Positions 6,189-37,467 of a stretch of DNA of 37,467 nucleotides are shown piece after piece. Numbering within the stretch: the stretch's first letter is position 1; the number at the start of each line of letters is the position of its first letter. This DNA comes from a virus. Taxonomy: Duplodnaviria > Heunggongvirae > Uroviricota > Caudoviricetes. The position numbers and the translations under genes are program-made. The DNA lies in IMG/VR virus record IMGVR_UViG_2563366946_000012. The stretch is one strand, 5' to 3'. The notes under the pieces were generated by a model, which was given only the letters and a program-made list of their open reading frames with translations, searched no databases and was not told the origin of the DNA.

Positions 6189-9139
6189 CAGCGGTACTCC
6201 TTACGTTGTTTCTGAGCCAGCAGACGCTCCAGCATTTTTTCCAGCTCATGCAGACTCATATTCAGGGCACCAGTCAGTCCTGCAGGCGCTGTGGTTTCCC
6301 TGCCATTGAGGAAAAACTGAGGATTAAAGCTGACCTGAATACCACCAGACGTTCCACCGCCGGTTGCAGCTGCACCACGGCCTGAATATCCGGCAGCCAG
6401 GATTTCAGACGAGGGGATACGGGGAACATCCGGTGTCATCTCATTTGCCAGACGTTGCCCTGGTAAAATCGATGCCCGGGTGGAGAGCGGAATAGCGGGC
6501 ATGGAAGACAAACTATTGATTACGGATCCGATCGCATTTTTAGCAGACGACATAAACCCGTTGATATCGGGCAACGGCATGCGGAAGTGAACATCTGAAG
6601 TGTTATCCCGTATTTCTGGCCCCTGAATGCTCACGGGCATTTTGGGGAGCAGTTCACTGGCCATTCGCTGACCGGCCAGAGCTGCAAGCGGAGTGCTCCG
6701 CTGCAGGCCAATGGCGGCCCCCTGCGCGATATTGTCACCAAAGCCCATAAACACGCGGCTCGGCGAATGAATGCCCAGCTTTTCGCTGAACCAGCCACTG
6801 ATGCTGTCGCCCATTCCGGTTACGCTGGTTTTGAGTGACTCCCATTTGTTTTTGATACCGTTAATCAGACCGTCGACAAGATGGCCACCGAAGTCGGTGA
6901 ACTTTGCCGGCAGCTCAACGCCGAGATATTTCAGCGCAGCTGCAAAGGCTTTATAGAGCAGACCTGCCGGCGACCAGTTAATCAGCAGCTTACCAGTTCC
7001 CACGATACCGCCGTTAAAGGCTTCCTGAATGTCAGCCCAGCGTTGTTTAAACCAGCTACTGATGCTGTCACCCATTCCGGTTACACTGGATTTGAGCGCC
7101 CCCCATTTGTTTTTGATACCGTTAATCAGACCGTCGATAAGATGGCCACCGAAGTCGGTGAACTTTGCCGGCAGAGCAACGCCGAAATATTTCAGCGCAG
7201 CCGCAAAGGCTTTATAGAGCAGGCCTGCCGGCGACCAGTTAATCAGCAACTTACCAATTCCCACAATGCCGCCGTTAAAGGCTTCCTGAATGTCAGCCCA
7301 GCGCTGTTTAAACCAGCCACTGACTGCCCCCCAGTTGCGGTAGATAAGGTAAGCTGCTGCCGCGACAGCGGTGATAACGAGACCGATGGGATTCATCATC
7401 AGCGCACGTCCAATCCAGAGAACAGCACGTCCGGCGAGCATAATTCCGCGAACCAGCCCCCCGGAGAGCACGCCACTCAGTGTTCTGGCTCCTCTGGCGA
7501 CGGCGCTAAATCCGGTCACCAGCCAGCGGAGCTTACCGCCTTGCCCCAGTGCGAGCGACAGACGAAGCCAGTTGGCCCGAAGTAAAACAGCATTTTTCCA
7601 GACACTTACAAAGGGGGAAATAAGGAGATTCAGCCCCAGTTTGAGACCAACAGTCGCTATCTTAATCGCAAGGAGCGCACTGATGAGCTTAAAAGCCCCA
7701 CTGACAAATTGCGGGTGAGTCGCTACCCAGTGTTTTGTCCCCTGAATGAGTGGGAGCAAGTCCTGAGTCAGAGAAATAAAAGATGGAGCTAATTGATCGC
7801 CCAGCGTAATTGCCAGATCGCGACTGCTGACCATAAGTGCTTTAGTGGCTTCAAGGGGAGATTTCAGCCGCTGATCATAAGCACTGGCAAGCAAATCGTT
7901 ATCCGCAGTCCTGAGAGCACCGGCGCGGATCTCGCGATATCTGTCCATGTTGGCCAGCATCGGGCGGATAAATGCCATGACCTGCATATCCGCGAACATA
8001 TCACCCAGACCAAAGTTTTTCGCCAGAGCCTGAAGTGCCTCATCTCTTGCCGTATCATTCTTTATTTTCATGGCGGATTTGAAGCCGGCCAGCGCTTCGG
8101 GGCTTTTGGCATTGAGGTAACGTTCTATAACACTCAACATCCCTTCAATCGGAGAGATCCCCGCAGCCTTATAACTCGCAATAGATCCCTGCAAATCAAT
8201 ACCCAGATCAGCAAACTGTTTCTGAGTATCGCGGGCAAAAATTTTGGTAAGAAAGTTTTTAAAATTATTGGCTGCCTCGTCGGTGGAACCTGCACCGATT
8301 TTTGCTATCTGGAGACTGGCCCCGATTTCAGCAACAGCCTCTTTTCCACTGGCAATACCCGCCATCATTGGGGCCAGGGACTGCATCCACTTGACCTGAT
8401 CCGGGATTTCAAATGACCCCTGGTCACCGGCATAAGCCATAATATTCTGAACGGCACCAAAATCTCTGGCCGCACCTTTCAGGGAGTTTTGCCAGACTGC
8501 GGCCACTTTTGCCCAGTCCTGAGCAGACGTGCGTGTTGCCGTTGCCGCGCGGGCAATATCCGGCATCAGAAAACCGATATCTGACACATTATCAATATTG
8601 TCGCTGATGAGTGAACCCACCGCCTCCTGCAGCTCATCCTGATACTGATTGTATTTAAGCGCCCAGCCTTTTATCTGTCCGGCAAGTGCATCCCGCGTTT
8701 TATTGTCATATTTTGCGGTGATCGACATATCAATCATTTTGTCCTGAAAAGACATGGACTGCTGAACGGCAGGGGAAACCGTATGATAAACAGTCTGTGC
8801 CATGCCATACGCTTCAATCCCCTGACCATACAGCGCCATGCGGTTAGCTTTCAGCGCATCACTGGTAGCGGATGCCGCTGACAGACGGCGCTGCTGGCGC
8901 ACAATTTGCTCCATGGTGCGGCTTACCCGCAGCAGCTCGCTGTTGAGATGCTGCATCCGGGAAGAACCCAGTTGACCATAACGTTCTGTTGCACGGGTTA
9001 AAGCGTTCTGACGTTCCTGCAGGCGGCGTGAGGTATCGCTCAGGGAATCAAGCGCACGGCGGGTACCGCTCATTGCAGAACGGAATGTGCTGCCAATCAT
9101 CCCGCCGATAACAACGCCGACTGAAAACTGTCCCGACAT
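6188..9139 (-). CDS. Tail tape measure protein
   Basis: 983-aa ORF, the longest in the tail module. Alpha-helical/coiled-coil N-terminus, hydrophobic central segments, internal repeats; lies downstream of the chaperone pair with a GGAGG RBS. Confidence 0.85.
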   Translation of the reverse strand: MSGQFSVGVVIGGMIGSTFRSAMSGTRRALDSLSDTSRRLQERQNALTRATERYGQLGSSRMQHLNSELLRVSRTMEQIVRQQRRLSAASATSDALKANRMALYGQGIEAYGMAQTVYHTVSPAVQQSMSFQDKMIDMSITAKYDNKTRDALAGQIKGWALKYNQYQDELQEAVGSLISDNIDNVSDIGFLMPDIARAATATRTSAQDWAKVAAVWQNSLKGAARDFGAVQNIMAYAGDQGSFEIPDQVKWMQSLAPMMAGIASGKEAVAEIGASLQIAKIGAGSTDEAANNFKNFLTKIFARDTQKQFADLGIDLQGSIASYKAAGISPIEGMLSVIERYLNAKSPEALAGFKSAMKIKNDTARDEALQALAKNFGLGDMFADMQVMAFIRPMLANMDRYREIRAGALRTADNDLLASAYDQRLKSPLEATKALMVSSRDLAITLGDQLAPSFISLTQDLLPLIQGTKHWVATHPQFVSGAFKLISALLAIKIATVGLKLGLNLLISPFVSVWKNAVLLRANWLRLSLALGQGGKLRWLVTGFSAVARGARTLSGVLSGGLVRGIMLAGRAVLWIGRALMMNPIGLVITAVAAAAYLIYRNWGAVSGWFKQRWADIQEAFNGGIVGIGKLLINWSPAGLLYKAFAAALKYFGVALPAKFTDFGGHLIDGLINGIKNKWGALKSSVTGMGDSISSWFKQRWADIQEAFNGGIVGTGKLLINWSPAGLLYKAFAAALKYLGVELPAKFTDFGGHLVDGLINGIKNKWESLKTSVTGMGDSISGWFSEKLGIHSPSRVFMGFGDNIAQGAAIGLQRSTPLAALAGQRMASELLPKMPVSIQGPEIRDNTSDVHFRMPLPDINGFMSSAKNAIGSVINSLSSMPAIPLSTRASILPGQRLANEMTPDVPRIPSSEILAAGYSGRGAAATGGGTSGGIQVSFNPQFFLNGRETTAPAGLTGALNMSLHELEKMLERLLAQKQRKEYR
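6770..7330. repeat. Tandem duplication of a 261-bp (87-aa) unit inside the tape measure gene (two full copies plus the start of a third)
   Basis: Units begin near 6789, 7050 and 7311; protein repeat SWFKQRWADIQEAFNGGIVG(I/T)GKLLINWSPAGLLYKAFAAALKY…GMGDSIS occurs twice in tandem. Confidence 0.85.
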
Positions 9140-22659: not shown

Positions 22660-23039
22660 AGTCCTGTTGCCACAGCCAGACAGACCGCTGCAACAATCAG
22701 TGCACGGCGGATTAACGCAGCAGAAAATACAAGGTGAAGGCCGGTCTGCACAGGGAAACGCCCTTCAGCCATCAGCCTGTCTTCATGTTTCAGGTACTGA
22801 CCGGGACGGGCTTTGGGGAAGAGCGAACGGTCAAGCCAGTAACCCAGCACTGCTGCCAGCGTGATAAGTGCCAGCTTGTAGATCACAACAGGCAACTGCT
22901 GTGGCGAGACCAGAGCGATGATGCCCAGCAACAGCACTGAGGTCAGCAGCCAGCCGCTGAGGCGAGGTTTTTTAACAGGGGGAATGAATTTTTTCAGGTT
23001 TTTCATGTGTGTCTCCTCGTTTGGTGGAGACAGCATCAC
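22656..23039 (-). CDS. Putative holin/pinholin (first gene of the late operon)
   Basis: 127-aa ORF (GTG start in track; internal ATG giving MKNLKKF… near 23006) with 2-3 predicted TM helices, overlapping the endolysin start. Confidence 0.5.
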   Translation of the reverse strand: MMLSPPNEETHMKNLKKFIPPVKKPRLSGWLLTSVLLLGIIALVSPQQLPVVIYKLALITLAAVLGYWLDRSLFPKARPGQYLKHEDRLMAEGRFPVQTGLHLVFSAALIRRALIVAAVCLAVATGL

Positions 23040-23120
23040 AAATGTGGCGGGATACGGATTTTAAACAGCGTTAATAGTGAAGATGTAAACGTGCACTGCA
23101 TGATGACTTTGAAAGAACGA

Positions 23121-23148
23121 CCAGCCCGGTACCCGAACACCGGGCTGG
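23121..23148. promoter_or_regulatory. Perfect 10-bp inverted repeat with 8-nt loop upstream of the late operon (activator site or minus-strand terminator/insulator)
   Basis: ccagcccggt-acccgaac-accgggctgg read directly from the sequence, about 85-130 bp upstream of the holin start. Confidence 0.4.
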
Positions 23149-23194
23149 CCATCGCCCCACAGGAATGCGCTGTGAGCCGACCGAGGTTCAGTCA

Positions 23195-23234
23195 GTCTCG
23201 CGAGACCAGACTAGCCTGCCATATTTTTTATAAT
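23195..23234 (+). promoter_or_regulatory. Methyltransferase promoter region: 12-bp palindrome GTCTCGCGAGAC and consensus -10 hexamer TATAAT
   Basis: Palindrome at about 23195-23206; TATAAT at about 23229-23234, about 20 bp upstream of the ATG at 23254. Confidence 0.45.
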
Positions 23235-23253
23235 TGTAAAAGGCTTACAGATT

Positions 23254-24024
23254 ATGAAAATGCAGACATTACCCATCGTTCCATGGATTGGTGGCAAACG
23301 CCGCCTTGCAAAACACATCCTGCCGTTGTTTCCGGCGCATGAATGTTATGTGGAGCCGTTTTGTGGGGCAGCAGCGCTCTATTTTCTTAAGGTACCCGGC
23401 AAGATCGAAGTCATTAATGATATCAACGGTGAACTGGTGAACCTGTATCGGGTGGTAAAACATCATCTGGAAGAATTTGTACGCCAGTTCAAATGGGCGC
23501 TGGTCAGCCGGCAGATCTACAAATGGCTGCAGATCACCCCGGAAGAAACACTGACGGATATCCAGCGTGCAGCACGGTTCTACTACCTTCAGAAGCAGGC
23601 GTTTGGAGGCAAGGTGGCGGAGCACAGCTTTGGTACCTCCACCATATCCCCGCCACGCTTCAACCTGCTGCGTATTGAAGAAGAACTGTCAGCGGCACAC
23701 CTGCGGCTTTCCAGAACGGTCATAGAACACATGGACTGGCAACAATGCATAGAACGATATGATCGCCCGCATACGTTGTTCTACTGTGACCCTCCATACT
23801 GGGGAACGGAAGGTTATGGTGTGGAGTTCGGACTAGAAAATTATGATCATATGGCAGATTTAGCACGCAGGATCAAAGGGAAGATGATTATATCGGTGAA
23901 CGATATCCCGGAAATGCGGCAGGCATTCAACGGTCTAAATATTCAGTCGGTTGATATCAGCTACAACCTCAAGATCACTGGCAAATCCAGTCGCAAGAAG
24001 GAACTCATTATCCTCAACTTTTGA
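23254..24024 (+). CDS. Orphan DNA N6-adenine methyltransferase (Dam-like, alpha class)
   Basis: N-terminal AdoMet-binding block (VEPFCGAAALYF), C-terminal catalytic DPPY (FYCDPPYWGTEGYG), about 256 aa; no adjacent restriction endonuclease gene. Confidence 0.85.
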   Translation: MKMQTLPIVPWIGGKRRLAKHILPLFPAHECYVEPFCGAAALYFLKVPGKIEVINDINGELVNLYRVVKHHLEEFVRQFKWALVSRQIYKWLQITPEETLTDIQRAARFYYLQKQAFGGKVAEHSFGTSTISPPRFNLLRIEEELSAAHLRLSRTVIEHMDWQQCIERYDRPHTLFYCDPPYWGTEGYGVEFGLENYDHMADLARRIKGKMIISVNDIPEMRQAFNGLNIQSVDISYNLKITGKSSRKKELIILNF

Positions 24025-25219
24025 CCGAATAGTAAGACTTCATGCAGTGAATCAAGTACTGCATGAAGTCAAGGGCTGGTTTTGTGTACCAAAAATAAAC
24101 AGTGATAGCGGTAATAATTCCCATAACTAGAACACCACGTATAATCCAGAACGTACGTTTCTGCGTGTCTAGTCGCGCAGAAATACTGCTAAATACACCA
24201 GCCACGTCATCTTTAATGAAGGAATATTCCTTATTAATCTGTTTTTCTTTGTATTCAATTTCTTCGCCTAAGGCCTTTATAGATTGCATCTGGTTCGAAA
24301 GTGCCAGCCAGATTAACGTTGCAGCAAAAATGCATCCCAGAAGAATTATTGTGTTTGTTATCCCTTGGCCTGACCATTTCGTAGCCACTTTGAATTGGGT
24401 AGCTACGATAACAGAGGCAACAGGAATGCCAAGTATATGGTTCTGGATATCTGAAAACGCTTTGTGGATTTTACCCATTTCTTCGACTTTTGCAGCACGC
24501 AGTTGATCCATTACTTTGTCATAAGAGAATCCAGAAGAGTAGATACGATACCCTTTCAGAAACTTTTCATGCAGACGCTGAATATTGTCCAGTAAATAAG
24601 CGAATACTAGAGGTGAATCAATTCCATCACTAACTGCTTGGATACTTTCAATCAGAATATCTAGCTTCTGATCCTTATGGGTATCATCATTGAAACAAGC
24701 TATAAGGTTATCAAGATACTCTCTTTGCAAATTTTGTACATTTTCTGCAGCGAAGTGCGGTAATAGCTTGATAACTTCTTTTTTCAGAAAAACTAACTGA
24801 CAAGTTGAGTTATCAAAGTAGGCCGCGGCCTCTTTTAGCAGGTTAACGAACTCGAGAATCTTCCGGTAGTTGCTGATGAAAACGGGGATATCTTCATCAT
24901 CATTACGAAACTTTGTTTCTAGGATGAAGTAATTAGCTGGCTCAAGGCACTGATGCTTTGGAGCATTTAGCAATTTTTCATGGGTGGAAAACACAAGTCC
25001 CAGTCCACTCCGTGGTGACGTCACACGTAGGATGATCGTGTTACCTGGAGCGATAGTGCCTGTATCAATAGAAAGACCATATTCACGAGGATCATCAAGC
25101 AAAGTATCAACCAGATCACAATCGGACTGATCTAAGAGCAACAGCGAACCGACACGAAACCCCTCTTGGAATTCCATACGACGATACAGAGCTGTCAGCA
25201 TCTCAAATGAAATCGCCAC
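24014..25219 (-). CDS. Cassette gene 2: protein with large cytoplasmic N-terminal domain and two C-terminal transmembrane helices (candidate effector)
   Basis: 401-aa ORF; hydrophobic helices near residues 295-320 (ITNTIILLGCIFAATLIWLALS) and 360-385 (FWIIRGVLVMGIITAITVYFWY). Start is 2 nt after the stop of the upstream gene; AT-rich by eye. Confidence 0.6.
   Translation of the reverse strand: MAISFEMLTALYRRMEFQEGFRVGSLLLLDQSDCDLVDTLLDDPREYGLSIDTGTIAPGNTIILRVTSPRSGLGLVFSTHEKLLNAPKHQCLEPANYFILETKFRNDDEDIPVFISNYRKILEFVNLLKEAAAYFDNSTCQLVFLKKEVIKLLPHFAAENVQNLQREYLDNLIACFNDDTHKDQKLDILIESIQAVSDGIDSPLVFAYLLDNIQRLHEKFLKGYRIYSSGFSYDKVMDQLRAAKVEEMGKIHKAFSDIQNHILGIPVASVIVATQFKVATKWSGQGITNTIILLGCIFAATLIWLALSNQMQSIKALGEEIEYKEKQINKEYSFIKDDVAGVFSSISARLDTQKRTFWIIRGVLVMGIITAITVYFWYTKPALDFMQYLIHCMKSYYSVKS
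24036..24087 (+). terminator. Rho-independent-type terminator hairpin downstream of the methyltransferase
   Basis: Perfect 13-bp inverted repeat gacttcatgcagt / actgcatgaagtc with 9-nt loop (about 24036-24070), followed by GGTTTTGTGT; overlaps the last codons of the convergent minus-strand membrane-protein gene. Confidence 0.5.
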
Positions 25220-25221
25220 GA

Positions 25222-26229
25222 TTAAACCTCAGTCATCCACATTTCCCTAAATTCTTCAGGTACATTACGTAGGGTGATAATATTTGTTTCCGGATCATAA
25301 TCAATATAGCCTTCAGTTTTCCCTTCCCGGTCAAACTTAAGTTCCCAATATTTAGACTTGCCTTTAAAAGATACCAGAGCCCGAATGACTCGACCATCAG
25401 GAACGAAGCCATCCGATAACTCCAACTCTTCAGCAGCAAGTTTACCAGATAACTCCTCGGGAGCCTGGGGCCAAATGGCATTAACAAGGGTTTCAAGACT
25501 AAGTGGTTCACCAGCCTTACTTAGTGCATGTAAGTGTTCAAACGCACTCTTAAGAAATGCATCTTTTTCAGCGCCGTCAAGTCCTTTCTCTGCCGCAAAT
25601 GCTTTTAAAACGTCACGTAACTTTTCAGACTCTCGTTTGGCGATTAAGACATCATTACAGCCGAGGAACTGTTTAAAATAGTTTGAAACATTACCTTGCC
25701 CCTTAAGAAAACTGATATAGCGCTCTGCGCCACTTTCCCACGCGGTTAAGTCAATGCGCCCAGCCATACGCAGCTTAGCAATATCAAGATAGGTACTATC
25801 TTGGATGTTAAAATCATCTGTGACAGTGGACCCAATGGTAGCGCTTACAATAGCTATCAACAGGTGTTCATTGTGTCCTATCACGATATTTGCAAAAAGA
25901 ACATAACCACCAGTAGCCATGTTTTCTCGCTGAGAACGTTCCGTCAGGTGATGCATCATTCGGCAGGAACTTTGGTAGAAATCATCAACACCTTCGAGAA
26001 AGTCCCCAGCCATTCGTTCCATAGGATAGTTATCCGTATCGCCTTCAAAATAGCCATAACCTTTACCTGTGCGTCCTGCATATTTTGCACAAATATCGTT
26101 TATAAGGCGCTGGGAGGCTTCAGTAACTAGACCTTCTTCAGGACTCAATCTCTCAGAAGCGTCTCCATTTTGTTGTTTGTCTAAAATGTGAACTACAACG
26201 TGTTTAACTTCAATGGTCTGCTCAGACAT
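25222..26229 (-). CDS. Cassette gene 1: YejK/NdpA-like (NA37 family) nucleoid-associated protein homolog
   Basis: 335-aa ORF with blocks recalled from E. coli YejK (…GGYVLFANIV…HLLIAIVS…YLDIAKLRMAGRIDLTAWESGAERYISFLKG…FKQFLG…). Good RBS (AAGGTGGA) before the ATG; begins 70 bp downstream of the repressor stop on the same strand. Confidence 0.55.
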   Translation of the reverse strand: MSEQTIEVKHVVVHILDKQQNGDASERLSPEEGLVTEASQRLINDICAKYAGRTGKGYGYFEGDTDNYPMERMAGDFLEGVDDFYQSSCRMMHHLTERSQRENMATGGYVLFANIVIGHNEHLLIAIVSATIGSTVTDDFNIQDSTYLDIAKLRMAGRIDLTAWESGAERYISFLKGQGNVSNYFKQFLGCNDVLIAKRESEKLRDVLKAFAAEKGLDGAEKDAFLKSAFEHLHALSKAGEPLSLETLVNAIWPQAPEELSGKLAAEELELSDGFVPDGRVIRALVSFKGKSKYWELKFDREGKTEGYIDYDPETNIITLRNVPEEFREMWMTEV

Positions 26230-26299
26230 TAGCTATCCACCTTATTTTTTATTGCTTAATGGCAAATAATTTCTGCTATATGTTCTCGTTAGGAACACA

Positions 26300-26707
26300 T
26301 TAACCCACATTTTTTAACCGCTCAATCGTTGCGGATAATTCCTTCAGTTGTTTTTCCATCTCAATCACACGCTGTTTTTCTTCAGCGCCTCGCATGAGAT
26401 CTCGCCGAACCTCAGGATCTAACTGGTTTAGAAGTTCAAGCATTTTAAGGTCTGACGGGCTGAATTGATGTTGTGTTGGTACAGCAACAATTTCTTTAGA
26501 TGGAATATGTTCTTTACCGGTAAGTAGCCAATCGATCGATACACCCAAATGGGTGCTTAGCGCAACAAGAGCCTCTGCGTTTGGTTCTCTCTCTCCACGC
26601 AAATAGTTTTGAAGTGAGCGATATGGAATTTTTGATAAGTCAGATAATGCCTTTATTGTCATGCCATTAGCATCCATCACTTCACGCAATCTCTCTTTTG
26701 TACTCAT
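26300..26707 (-). CDS. Prophage repressor, XRE-type helix-turn-helix
   Basis: From the internal ATG (MSTKERLREVMDANGMTIKALSDLSKIPYRSLQNYLRGEREPNAEALVALSTHLGVSIDWLLTG…) an HTH-type DNA-binding domain plus C-terminal coiled coil; divergent from the early operon. The track N-terminal extension (TTG start at 26803) is implausible. Confidence 0.7.
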   Translation of the reverse strand: MSTKERLREVMDANGMTIKALSDLSKIPYRSLQNYLRGEREPNAEALVALSTHLGVSIDWLLTGKEHIPSKEIVAVPTQHQFSPSDLKMLELLNQLDPEVRRDLMRGAEEKQRVIEMEKQLKELSATIERLKNVG

Positions 26708-26789
26708 TTGAACACATCTCAATTTGACACACTCATTTGGGTGTGTACAATAGACCCAATAGAGTACATCATAACCTAACAGGAACACG
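26708..26789. promoter_or_regulatory. Divergent repressor/early promoter-operator region
   Basis: 82-bp gap between divergent repressor and ner-like genes containing the inverted repeat ACACAC-n8-GTGTGT and the adjacent palindrome TGTACA. Confidence 0.5.
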
Positions 26790-26795
26790 GTGCAT

Positions 26796-27020
26796 ATGAA
26801 CAAACAACAAGTTCGGGCACGGCTGGTTGAACGAGGCAGTAGCTTGCGCCAGTTCGCGCTTAACGCGGGCTATGAACCACGAACAGTCACCCAGGCAGTC
26901 AGTCGCTGGGCTGGTAAAAGTGAACTACCTCGCGGTCGTTTGACTTATCGGATTTTGCGAGATCTATCGGTTGCAATAGGTAAAGAAGTTACCCCCGGTA
27001 TCCTTAAGGAGGCGTCATGA
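26796..27020 (+). CDS. ner: Ner-like DNA-binding early regulator
   Basis: …LRQFALNAGYEPRTVTQAVSRW… resembles the Mu Ner HTH; first gene of the early operon, about 75 aa. Confidence 0.65.
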   Translation: MNKQQVRARLVERGSSLRQFALNAGYEPRTVTQAVSRWAGKSELPRGRLTYRILRDLSVAIGKEVTPGILKEAS

Positions 27021-27325
27021 ATAAACCAAATACATCAAGCTCAGGTACCCGTATTTTGCGCGTTCTTAAGGCCTTACGTGGCCACGCTTTGAACGGTGTT
27101 TCTAACGGGGAACTAGCGGTTGCACTGCACGAATCACCGGCAAACATCAACCGGGCACTTAACACGCTCATTGAAGAAGGGTTGGCTCTGAAACTAGAAA
27201 ACGGGCGTTTCGCACCAGGCATCCAGTTGCTGCAGATCGCCATGGCCCACAGTAACGAGATGGCACGTGCACAGGATCGCATTAACGAAATCAACCAACG
27301 TGTTATTTCAGGTAGTCGTTTGTAA
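27017..27325 (+). CDS. Winged-helix DNA-binding protein (IclR/MarR-like HTH)
   Basis: 102 aa; …ILRVLKALRGHALNGVSNGELAVALHESPANINRALNTLIEEGLA… looks like a wHTH; ATGA overlap with ner. Confidence 0.45.
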   Translation: MNKPNTSSSGTRILRVLKALRGHALNGVSNGELAVALHESPANINRALNTLIEEGLALKLENGRFAPGIQLLQIAMAHSNEMARAQDRINEINQRVISGSRL

Positions 27326-27335
27326 GGAGTAATCA

Positions 27336-28247
27336 ATGGGACGCACCAAATCACCGGTTAGCACTGAACTGAACGTCGAGGTACCGCTGTCGGATGATCT
27401 CAATGTCAGTCTAAACGCCATGACACAGCATCGCATGGAAATCATGCAACAGTTCGGCGATGGTCTGCCCTATGAGCGCGATCGTGTTGTCCATGAGGCA
27501 CGCTTTTATATGGCACAGAGCGCTGAGGCCATGCTGGAGGCAGGTAAGCGGCTGATAATCCTTAAGGAAAATGAACCACACGGGGAGTTTATAAAGATTC
27601 TTGAAAGTGAGTTGGGGCTGGCATACCGGACATCTGTGAGAATGATGCAAGCATCGACAAAATACTTATCCCCGGCGCTGAAACCAAATGTGCCAACGTT
27701 GGCACATTTGGGAAAAGCCAAACTTTTCGAATTAATGACAGAAGACGACGAAGAGCTTGCCGAACTGGCCGACGGCGGCACAGTTGCCGGCCTGACGCTT
27801 GACGACGTTGATCGCATGTCAGTACGTGAATTGCGTCAGGCCCTGCGCGAAGCGCGCGAAACCAACGCAGCACAACAGCGCGTACTCGCTGACAAAAATG
27901 AAAAAATAGACTCACTCTCCACCAGACTGGAGAAGAAATCCCGTATTCAGCCGCCTGAGCCTGATGAAGAGGTTAAGAAGCTGCGGGCGGAAGTGACAGC
28001 ATTAGCGGTTGAGGCGGAATCTGCTATCGCCGTTCGACTGTCCAGCGCTTTTGAGACGCTGTGCGCATATTGTGCTGAAAACATGATTGATACCCCCAGA
28101 GACTTCATGGCAGGCCTGGTCTGTCAACTGGAAAGCACAGCGCGTAGCCTGCGCTCCACATTTGACCTGCCGGATGAGCCAACAGGCAATGCCGCGCCTT
28201 CATGGCTGACTGAGCCGACGCCACAGATTAACGGGCTGGAGGCATAA
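27336..28247 (+). CDS. Hypothetical early protein
   Basis: 303-aa ORF with strong RBS (AAGGAG) upstream of the transposase; acidic, helical; no family recognised. Confidence 0.45.
   Translation: MGRTKSPVSTELNVEVPLSDDLNVSLNAMTQHRMEIMQQFGDGLPYERDRVVHEARFYMAQSAEAMLEAGKRLIILKENEPHGEFIKILESELGLAYRTSVRMMQASTKYLSPALKPNVPTLAHLGKAKLFELMTEDDEELAELADGGTVAGLTLDDVDRMSVRELRQALREARETNAAQQRVLADKNEKIDSLSTRLEKKSRIQPPEPDEEVKKLRAEVTALAVEAESAIAVRLSSAFETLCAYCAENMIDTPRDFMAGLVCQLESTARSLRSTFDLPDEPTGNAAPSWLTEPTPQINGLEA

Positions 28248-34847: not shown

Positions 34848-37467
<2,620 letters not shown>

Follow-up and report, generated by a model that had tools for sequence, protein, structure and literature searches.

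Introduction

Type II PANGU is described, in the accessible text of a recent preprint, as an abortive-infection (Abi) system composed of a nucleoid-associated protein (NAP), Pag2A, and a transmembrane effector, Pag2B (Li et al., bioRxiv 10.64898/2026.04.06.716658). According to that text, the tested E. coli type II operon (PANGU-Ecu) protects against T4 and Bas34, both genes are required, and the NAP relocalises on infection and binds the DMK domain (bioRxiv 10.64898/2026.04.06.716658). In phage lambda, the Rex system mediates abortive infection triggered by T4-type phages (PMC11077077). It has also been reported that DefensePredictor gives a lambdoid-type pair of the kind examined here, WP_000097747.1 and WP_000127202.1, log-odds of about 12 and 9, so that both count as predicted novel defence genes (PMC13092281 supplement).

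In this study, we analysed a window of 37,467 nucleotides (IMGVR_UViG_2563366946_000012). This sequence is an E. coli prophage of the BcepMu-like transposable type, and it carries an rve (DDE) transposase, Mu Gam, Mor, a MuB-like ATPase, and divergent early and late arms. Its insertion site, a DUF4092 lipoprotein gene, differs from that of the copy in NZ_OZ546956.1, which lies in aceK. A first-pass annotation had noticed an AT-rich island at 24030-26790, covering the repressor and a two-gene cassette. We propose that the island serves the prophage as a plastic zone for lysogeny control and cargo, and that the cassette is most likely a type II PANGU-like Abi system. The latter assignment is made by architecture, and we put the probability of the explanation as a whole at about 0.78.

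Results

The G+C content of positions 24030-26790 was 0.413 (41.3%), compared to 0.553 (55.3%) in the remaining window. This was the lowest value among segments of the same length (z = -6.2, far beyond chance), the reference being 585 same-length segments without overlap with the island (minimum 0.501, mean 0.557, sd 0.023). The global minimum of the sliding-window G+C begins at 24001, and the 500-nt profile was 0.38-0.45 across 23751-26750 and 0.52-0.63 over the greater part of the structural and the early genes. The AT run quoted in the first-pass annotation, aaaataaacagtgatagcggtaataattc, was found at about 24093-24121. Codon usage was calculated on the prophage copy in NZ_OZ546956.1, which is 99.985% identical. 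GC3 was 0.393 in the 401-aa gene, 0.350 in the NA37 gene and 0.336 in the repressor gene, against a backbone mean of 0.599 (sd 0.077; z = -2.7 to -3.4). Since GC3 was lowered in all three island genes, the AT shift sits at synonymous sites, beyond amino-acid composition alone. The island that had been seen by eye was thus borne out by both calculations. At its left edge, G+C drops below about 0.47 at about 23700-23900, where the Dam methylase gene has its 3' end; at its right edge, it rises again at 26700-26900. Intermediate shoulders (0.48-0.52) were observed at 23000-23750 and 26800-27750.

The island was then compared with related prophages, which were found in 642 of 5,426 complete E. coli genomes. 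The window's module was present in only 19 of these 642, and its cassette is absent from 97% of the sister prophages; natural lysogens include strains AHB24 and TUM13754. In sister prophages whose lysis and early flanks are 94-100% identical, the stretch from the holin gene to the ner-like gene has at least five alternative contents (Table 1). There are six slot configurations in all, and their homology breakpoints (left, 23945/24005; right, 26280/26759/27016) coincide with the compositional edges. In two sister prophages (L002 and L003) with flanks 90-98% identical, homology ends at 23945 and restarts at 26759, and the N-terminal HTH half of the repressor is not conserved. Another (L014) has the same immunity region as the window with different cargo. 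The island is thus made up of two modules exchanged independently, the cassette at 24006-26279 and the immunity region at 26280-26758/27016. As the first-pass annotation had predicted, the module is variable while the flanks are conserved. Its proposal of mosaicism, with separately acquired cargo, is supported by the slot exchange, but the single acquired block that it envisaged gives way to two modules.

The Dam gene is optional in sister prophages, with recombination breakpoints within its last 80 nt, and it overlaps the convergent 3' end of the 401-aa gene by 11 nt. Both the Dam gene and the empty slot at 23078-23109 are also part of the plastic zone. The cassette has neither flanking direct or inverted repeats nor a transposase, and its derivation from a transposon or IS was rejected. 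No Rfam match to an ncRNA was found in the island at E <= 0.1. PADLOC and Pfam gave no convincing defence domains in the alternative cargos of sister prophages, so a generalisation to a "defence hotspot" has the window's cassette as its single basis.

Table 1. Features of the AT-rich island and its surroundings, with the contents found at the same slots in sister prophages.
Feature	Position	Strand	Remarks
Second cargo slot, empty in window (32 bp)	23078-23109	.	Sister prophages hold 1-1.4 kb: DUF2441 gene or three-gene set
D12-class DNA adenine methylase (Dam)	23254-24024	+	Left shoulder, G+C 0.49
AT-rich core	23946-26758	.	No homology to L002/L003 (blastn) apart from 78% patch at 26281-26546; G+C 0.41
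Cargo cassette	24006-26279	-	Discrete replacement versus L014 (175-aa gene there); G+C 0.413
401-aa partner protein (Pag2B-like)	24014-25219	-	phrog_5023, 1.9e-142; 166 homologues
335-aa YejK/NdpA-family (Pfam NA37) nucleoid-associated protein, PagA-like	25222-26229	-	First cassette gene
Immunity module	26280-26795 (exchange right limits 26758/27016)	- (repressor)	HTH repressor and operator/promoter region
135-aa HTH (XRE/CI-type) prophage repressor	26300-26707	-	Pfam HTH_3 and Phage_CI_repr; RefSeq CDS coordinates; PHROG repressor families
Divergent control region	26708-26795	.	Consensus matches only
74-aa ner/cro-like small DNA-binding protein	26796-27020	+	First early gene; right shoulder of island; GC3 0.425
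Alternative slot content: 297-aa + 114/142-aa pair	Holin to ner-like gene		
Alternative slot content: 328-aa + 203/193-aa pair	Holin to ner-like gene		
Alternative slot content: one 175-aa gene	Holin to ner-like gene		
Alternative slot content: cassette missing	Holin to ner-like gene		Common ST131 type
Alternative content: DUF2441 or three-gene insert	Second slot		

The first cassette gene encodes a full-length YejK homologue, and only 2 nt separate its stop (25222) from the start of the partner gene (25219) on the same strand. The partner matched no Pfam family. Its N-terminal domain (residues 1-255) is acidic and alpha/beta, with a pI of 5.1 and a net charge of -10. The protein also has long helices, and two to three hydrophobic segments (262-280, 285-311 and 356-378) make up a C-terminal membrane domain. 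Among 42 family members, the N-terminal domain carries a net negative charge in 41. [quoted passage not shown]

The control region contains an early-promoter-like site, TTGACA-16-TACAAT, at 26724-26751 (+), matching the consensus at 11 of 12 positions. It lies inside an inverted repeat (17 nt, imperfect) at 26719-26754, a candidate operator. The repressor gene lies upstream of the cassette on the same strand, with a gap of 70 nt in which no terminator-like site was found, and a weak promoter-like site is located within its 3' end. Promoter and terminator matches were no more numerous than in shuffled sequence. Gene order, the short gap, the lack of a terminator-like site there and the weak promoter-like site suggest that cassette and repressor may be co-expressed.

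We also investigated the distribution of the pair. Of 46 GTDB species-level loci, 41 had the NA37 gene directly upstream of the partner gene and on the same strand, and the five exceptions were truncated, contig-edge or weak matches. At 27-38% identity, the pair occurs in Paraburkholderia, in Shewanella, in a Sinorhizobium phage and on a Sphingomonas plasmid. Lambdoid prophages carry it on the opposite strand, where it sits between Q and holin, and a chromosomal island has it next to an Mrr-type nuclease. BcepMu-like prophages of other genera hold the cassette in the slot that it occupies in the window, at 94-97% aa identity in Mixta and 80-92% in Brenneria and Pectobacterium, and their backbones are identical to a similar degree. 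Betaproteobacterial prophages hold it there too. In one further locus (L010), the cassette proteins were 77-87% identical and terL and the transposase 39-58% identical, a contrast that speaks for mosaicism.

This distribution bears on whether the whole 2.8-kb island was captured recently, in one event, from a low-G+C donor and has not yet ameliorated. The sharp 14-point drop in G+C, the GC3 shift and the lack of the island in most sister prophages would fit such an event. However, the island comprises two modules with separate histories. The same-slot cassettes of Mixta, Brenneria, Pectobacterium and the betaproteobacterial prophages are still 7-13 G+C points below their backbones, and the AT shift was observed in 39 of 41 species-level loci, in hosts of 44-65% G+C and in all phage contexts. 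A recent one-off capture is thus unlikely. Since the cassette occupies the same slot across genera, has diverged to a similar extent as the backbones and is still AT-shifted, its low G+C is no proof of recent arrival. These results indicate that low G+C is a standing property of the cargo family and the slot, not the signature of one recent transfer, and that a compositional island need not imply recent acquisition.

Discussion

The YejK-like protein might serve the phage's own biology instead of defence, for example as an architectural factor in transposition or in the lysis-lysogeny decision, and the membrane protein might then function in superinfection exclusion or in the timing of lysis. 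Mu-type transposition makes use of host NAPs. The cassette adjoins the repressor and lies near lysis genes in several phages, and RexA has been reported to bias the lambda switch (PMC11077077). Against this, plasmids, a chromosomal island and the lambdoid Q-holin moron site also harbour the pair, which therefore has no fixed link with transposition. In addition, 97% of sister prophages dispense with it, and the similarly organised PANGU-Ecu operon protects when cloned alone, according to the accessible preprint text (bioRxiv 10.64898/2026.04.06.716658). We consider a role in the phage's own biology quite improbable. It is scarcely credible that protein composition (a membrane and helical protein rich in I, K, N and F), and not module history, accounts for the low G+C: in the 401-aa gene, GC1 and GC2 are low as well (0.505 and 0.320), but GC3 drops most in all three genes, the soluble NAP and the repressor included (0.21-0.26 below the backbone mean), the non-coding spacers are as AT-rich as the genes, and the breakpoints coincide with the loss of homology.

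The cassette is best read as a type II PANGU-like Abi system. In a lysogen, its layout suggests that it would be expressed with or just behind the repressor. Its further action can be pictured from the steps given in the PANGU preprint for the tested E. coli operon. The NAP dimer would occupy the host nucleoid. Degradation of host DNA by a superinfecting phage would free the NAP, which could then bind the acidic, DNA-mimicking N-terminal domain of the partner. The membrane partner would in turn damage the membrane, and the infection would be aborted.

This locus provides a clean, quantified case of temperate phages maintaining a fixed repressor-side slot for exchanged AT-rich cargo. It may also place a recent class of NAP-based Abi systems on prophages (Mu-like, lambdoid and rhizobial), a context absent from the accessible text of the PANGU preprint. 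For annotation, the RefSeq accessions of the two cassette proteins are WP_000003711.1 and WP_001007984.1. One is at present called "nucleoid-associated protein" and the other "hypothetical protein", and together they can be marked as candidate defence proteins.

Among known systems, type II PANGU as described in the accessible preprint text shares with the cassette a bicistronic order, with a YejK-like NA37 gene first and a partner with an acidic N-domain and a C-terminal transmembrane region second. Both are present in E. coli and spread across Pseudomonadota, and both are predicted or shown to be defensive. They differ in context: prophages are mentioned nowhere in that text (bioRxiv 10.64898/2026.04.06.716658), whereas the window's cassette is prophage cargo that immediately follows a transposable phage's repressor, and in lambdoid phages the cargo lies at the Q-holin site. 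Kiwa also consists of two genes, a membrane protein (KwaA) and a DNA-interacting partner (KwaB), but in the reverse order relative to the cassette. PADLOC v2, which does not include the present family, gave as its sole match a weak KwaA hit to residues 262-394 of the 401-aa partner (8e-5). Kiwa membership was rejected, as the KwaA match was found in only 3-4 of 42 family members and the window's NAP had no DUF4868/KwaB match.

Phage morons and prophage accessory hotspots, such as the P2-P4 defence hotspots and the lambdoid Q-S cargo, likewise have a fixed slot, conserved flanks and swappable AT-rich cargo expressed from the prophage. Here, the slot differs in lying between the lysis cassette and the repressor of a BcepMu-like transposable phage, and in that most alternative cargos have no recognisable function. 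The AT-rich island illustrates this known pattern well and does not represent a novel type of element.

[quoted passage not shown] As in lambda, the genes lie downstream of the repressor on the same, lysogenic strand (26707->26300, 26229->25222, 25219->24014), divergent from a cro/ner-like early operon, and lambda cI-rexAB is AT-rich too (G+C 0.42). Homology to RexA or RexB was not detectable by hhalign (probability <= 1%), and RexB is a four-transmembrane protein of 144 aa, whereas the window's partner is 401 aa long and includes a large cytoplasmic domain. Weak structural relationships to RdgC and CENP-N/Chl4 have been reported both for RexA and for the N-domain of YejK. It is conceivable, if doubtful, that the repressor, NAP and membrane protein form the transposable-phage counterpart of cI-rexA-rexB, both belonging to one ancient class of exclusion modules. 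A non-specific DNA clamp with an RdgC/CENP-N-like fold would then report DNA loss or remodelling to a membrane effector, and the persistent AT-richness would have a function, such as H-NS-type silencing or expression coupled to the repressor, instead of being left over from a recent transfer. If so, NAP release of the PANGU type could account for the long-unresolved trigger of Rex exclusion.

Results

We identified the window as an Escherichia coli prophage of the transposable, BcepMu-like (Mu-type) kind. A 99.985% identical copy interrupts aceK in E. coli strain AHB24 (NZ_OZ546956.1). In the window, the prophage ends on the right at 34980, next to a truncated DUF4092 lipoprotein gene (34948-37467), possibly YghJ/SslE-like. 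Both insertions fall within a gene but in different genes, so the same phage has inserted at more than one site, as a transposing phage would. The tail-fibre region (1-1059) contained shifted internal repeats and differed from the AHB24 copy. The tape-measure gene (6789-7341) contained a tandem-like duplication of ~290 nt with 91% identity.

Features in and around the AT-rich island of the prophage
Feature	Position	Strand or region	Remarks
Structural/lysis arm	1-23006	minus	
Dam-type D12 methylase	23254-24024	+	
401-aa protein	24014-25219	-	without Pfam family
335-aa protein	25222-26229	-	NA37/YejK family
135-aa repressor	26300-26707	-	HTH
Early promoter	26724-26751	control region	sigma-70-like, 11/12 match, TTGACA-16-TACAAT
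Early arm	from 26796	plus	ner-like, HTH, DUF3102, DDE transposase, MuB-like ATPase, Gam ... Mor

The first-pass annotation had described 24030-26790 by eye as an AT-rich island, and both base composition and codon usage bore this out. The G+C content was 0.413 against 0.553 for the rest of the window (z = -6.2 against 585 same-length windows not overlapping the island), the lowest in the window, where all other same-length windows had at least 0.501; a 500-nt profile agreed. The AT run quoted in that annotation was found near 24093-24121. GC3 of the three island genes was 0.393, 0.350, and 0.336, compared with 0.599 +/- 0.077 for 48 other prophage genes, and the shift was largest at synonymous sites. 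Intermediate G+C shoulders extended to ~23000 on the left and ~27750 on the right.

Among 5,426 complete E. coli genomes, 642 had related prophages and only 19 had the module of the window. The interval from holin to ner was read in six configurations. Compared with sister prophages L002 and L003, homology (90-98%) ended at 23945 and restarted at 26759; in between, the C-terminal half of the repressor contained a patch of 78%. Compared with L011-L013, homology restarted only at 27016. Homology with L014 extended to 24005 and restarted at 26280; thus, the immunity region is common to L014 and the window. L014 has a ner-like protein 100% identical and a repressor 76% identical (aa) to those of the window, and a single 175-aa gene replaces the cassette. 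Since L014 keeps the immunity region with other cargo, these breakpoints divide the island into a cargo module (24006-26279) and an immunity module (26280-26758/27016), which are separable. The variable interval was AT-shifted in every sister prophage (0.44-0.49 versus 0.51-0.59 in the flanks). No repeats or transposase were found in the cassette flanks.

A second cargo slot at 23078-23109, between holin and Dam, is empty in the window. In sister prophages it is occupied, either by a DUF2441 gene or by three genes (242, 134, and 71 aa) with no assigned function. In L012, the Dam gene is cut down to its first ~80 nt.

In 39 of 41 species-level loci, and in every phage context, the cassette had an AT shift compared with the DNA around it. 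Proteins of the cassette and of the backbone diverged to a similar degree from those of the window in the prophages of Mixta, Brenneria, and Pectobacterium (80-97% and 78-94%, respectively), and the G+C offset persisted at 7-13 points. In L010, a more distant phage locus, the cassette was far closer to the window than the backbone (77-87% versus 39-58% identity), which shows exchange. Taken together, these comparisons argue that AT-richness is a lasting property of this cargo family as it circulates. The earlier proposal of a separately acquired, mosaic cargo site was supported by the variable module and conserved flanks, but as two modules rather than one block, and the AT-richness gave no evidence of a single recent transfer.

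The NA37 gene lay directly upstream of its partner on the same strand in 41 of 46 species-representative loci; the other five were truncated, contig-edge, or weak matches. In 9 of the 41 species-level loci, the pair occupied the same slot of a BcepMu-like prophage, including in betaproteobacterial hosts. Jeongeupia wiesaeckerbachi (NZ_CP136946.1), one such host, has two BcepMu-like prophage copies (L028 and L032), each with the pair in that slot. E. coli lambdoid prophages (16 genomes) carry a 38-50% identical pair on the opposite strand, with the Q antiterminator on one side and the holin on the other. A third variant occurs in a diverged BcepMu-like prophage. The pair was also found in Paraburkholderia (beside an Mrr-type nuclease), Shewanella, Sinorhizobium phage phi2LM21, and a Sphingomonas plasmid. 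In phi2LM21 and L010, an adenine methyltransferase gene, convergent or adjacent, lies beside the pair, perhaps by chance, perhaps because the neighbourhood recurs.

The NA37 protein is a full-length YejK homologue (Pfam NA37, 1e-80; PDB 9be2, E 6.8e-30), and the partner starts 2 nt past its stop. Residues 1-255 of the partner form an acidic alpha/beta domain (pI 5.1, net charge -10), kept in 41 of 42 homologues, and residues 262-378 contain 2-3 hydrophobic segments inside long helices. Each protein has its own PHROG family (phrog_3767 and phrog_5023). P0140, a 198-aa truncated protein 100% identical to part of the NA37 protein, was present on ~1,000 Salmonella Typhi contigs, which suggests a decayed cassette copy fixed in that lineage.

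The early promoter sits within an imperfect 17-nt inverted repeat (26719-26754) overlapping both hexamers, a candidate repressor operator. Inspection by eye revealed two perfect hairpins. One lies just past the Dam stop and within the 3' end of the 401-aa gene, at 24039-24069 (CTTCATGCAG...CTGCATGAAG), and the other separates Dam from holin, at 23121-23148 (CCAGCCCGG...CCGGGCTGG). They may halt leftward lysogenic transcription ahead of the lysis genes; a terminator scan called neither.

Discussion

The island probably contains a type II PANGU-like defence pair and an immunity module. In a 2026 preprint, PANGU systems are defined as YejK-like NAP operons, type II consisting of the NAP Pag2A and the membrane effector Pag2B, which combines an acidic, DNA-mimicking N-terminal domain with a C-terminal TM domain (bioRxiv 10.64898/2026.04.06.716658). 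There, an E. coli type II operon gave protection from T4 and Bas34 through abortive infection, for which both genes were needed, and its NAP left the nucleoid upon infection. The cassette in the window has every element of this architecture, a likeness at the level of gene and domain layout. The preprint text examined does not mention prophages, and the prophage context of the pair adds to its account. An independent tool, DefensePredictor, counted the lambdoid-type pair among its predicted defence genes, and the same study validated another, single-gene system with a YejK domain (PMC13092281).

The arrangement also resembles lambda cI-rexA-rexB, in which repressor, DNA-binding protein, and membrane protein follow in the same order on the lysogenic strand, and which is AT-rich (G+C 0.42) like the island.
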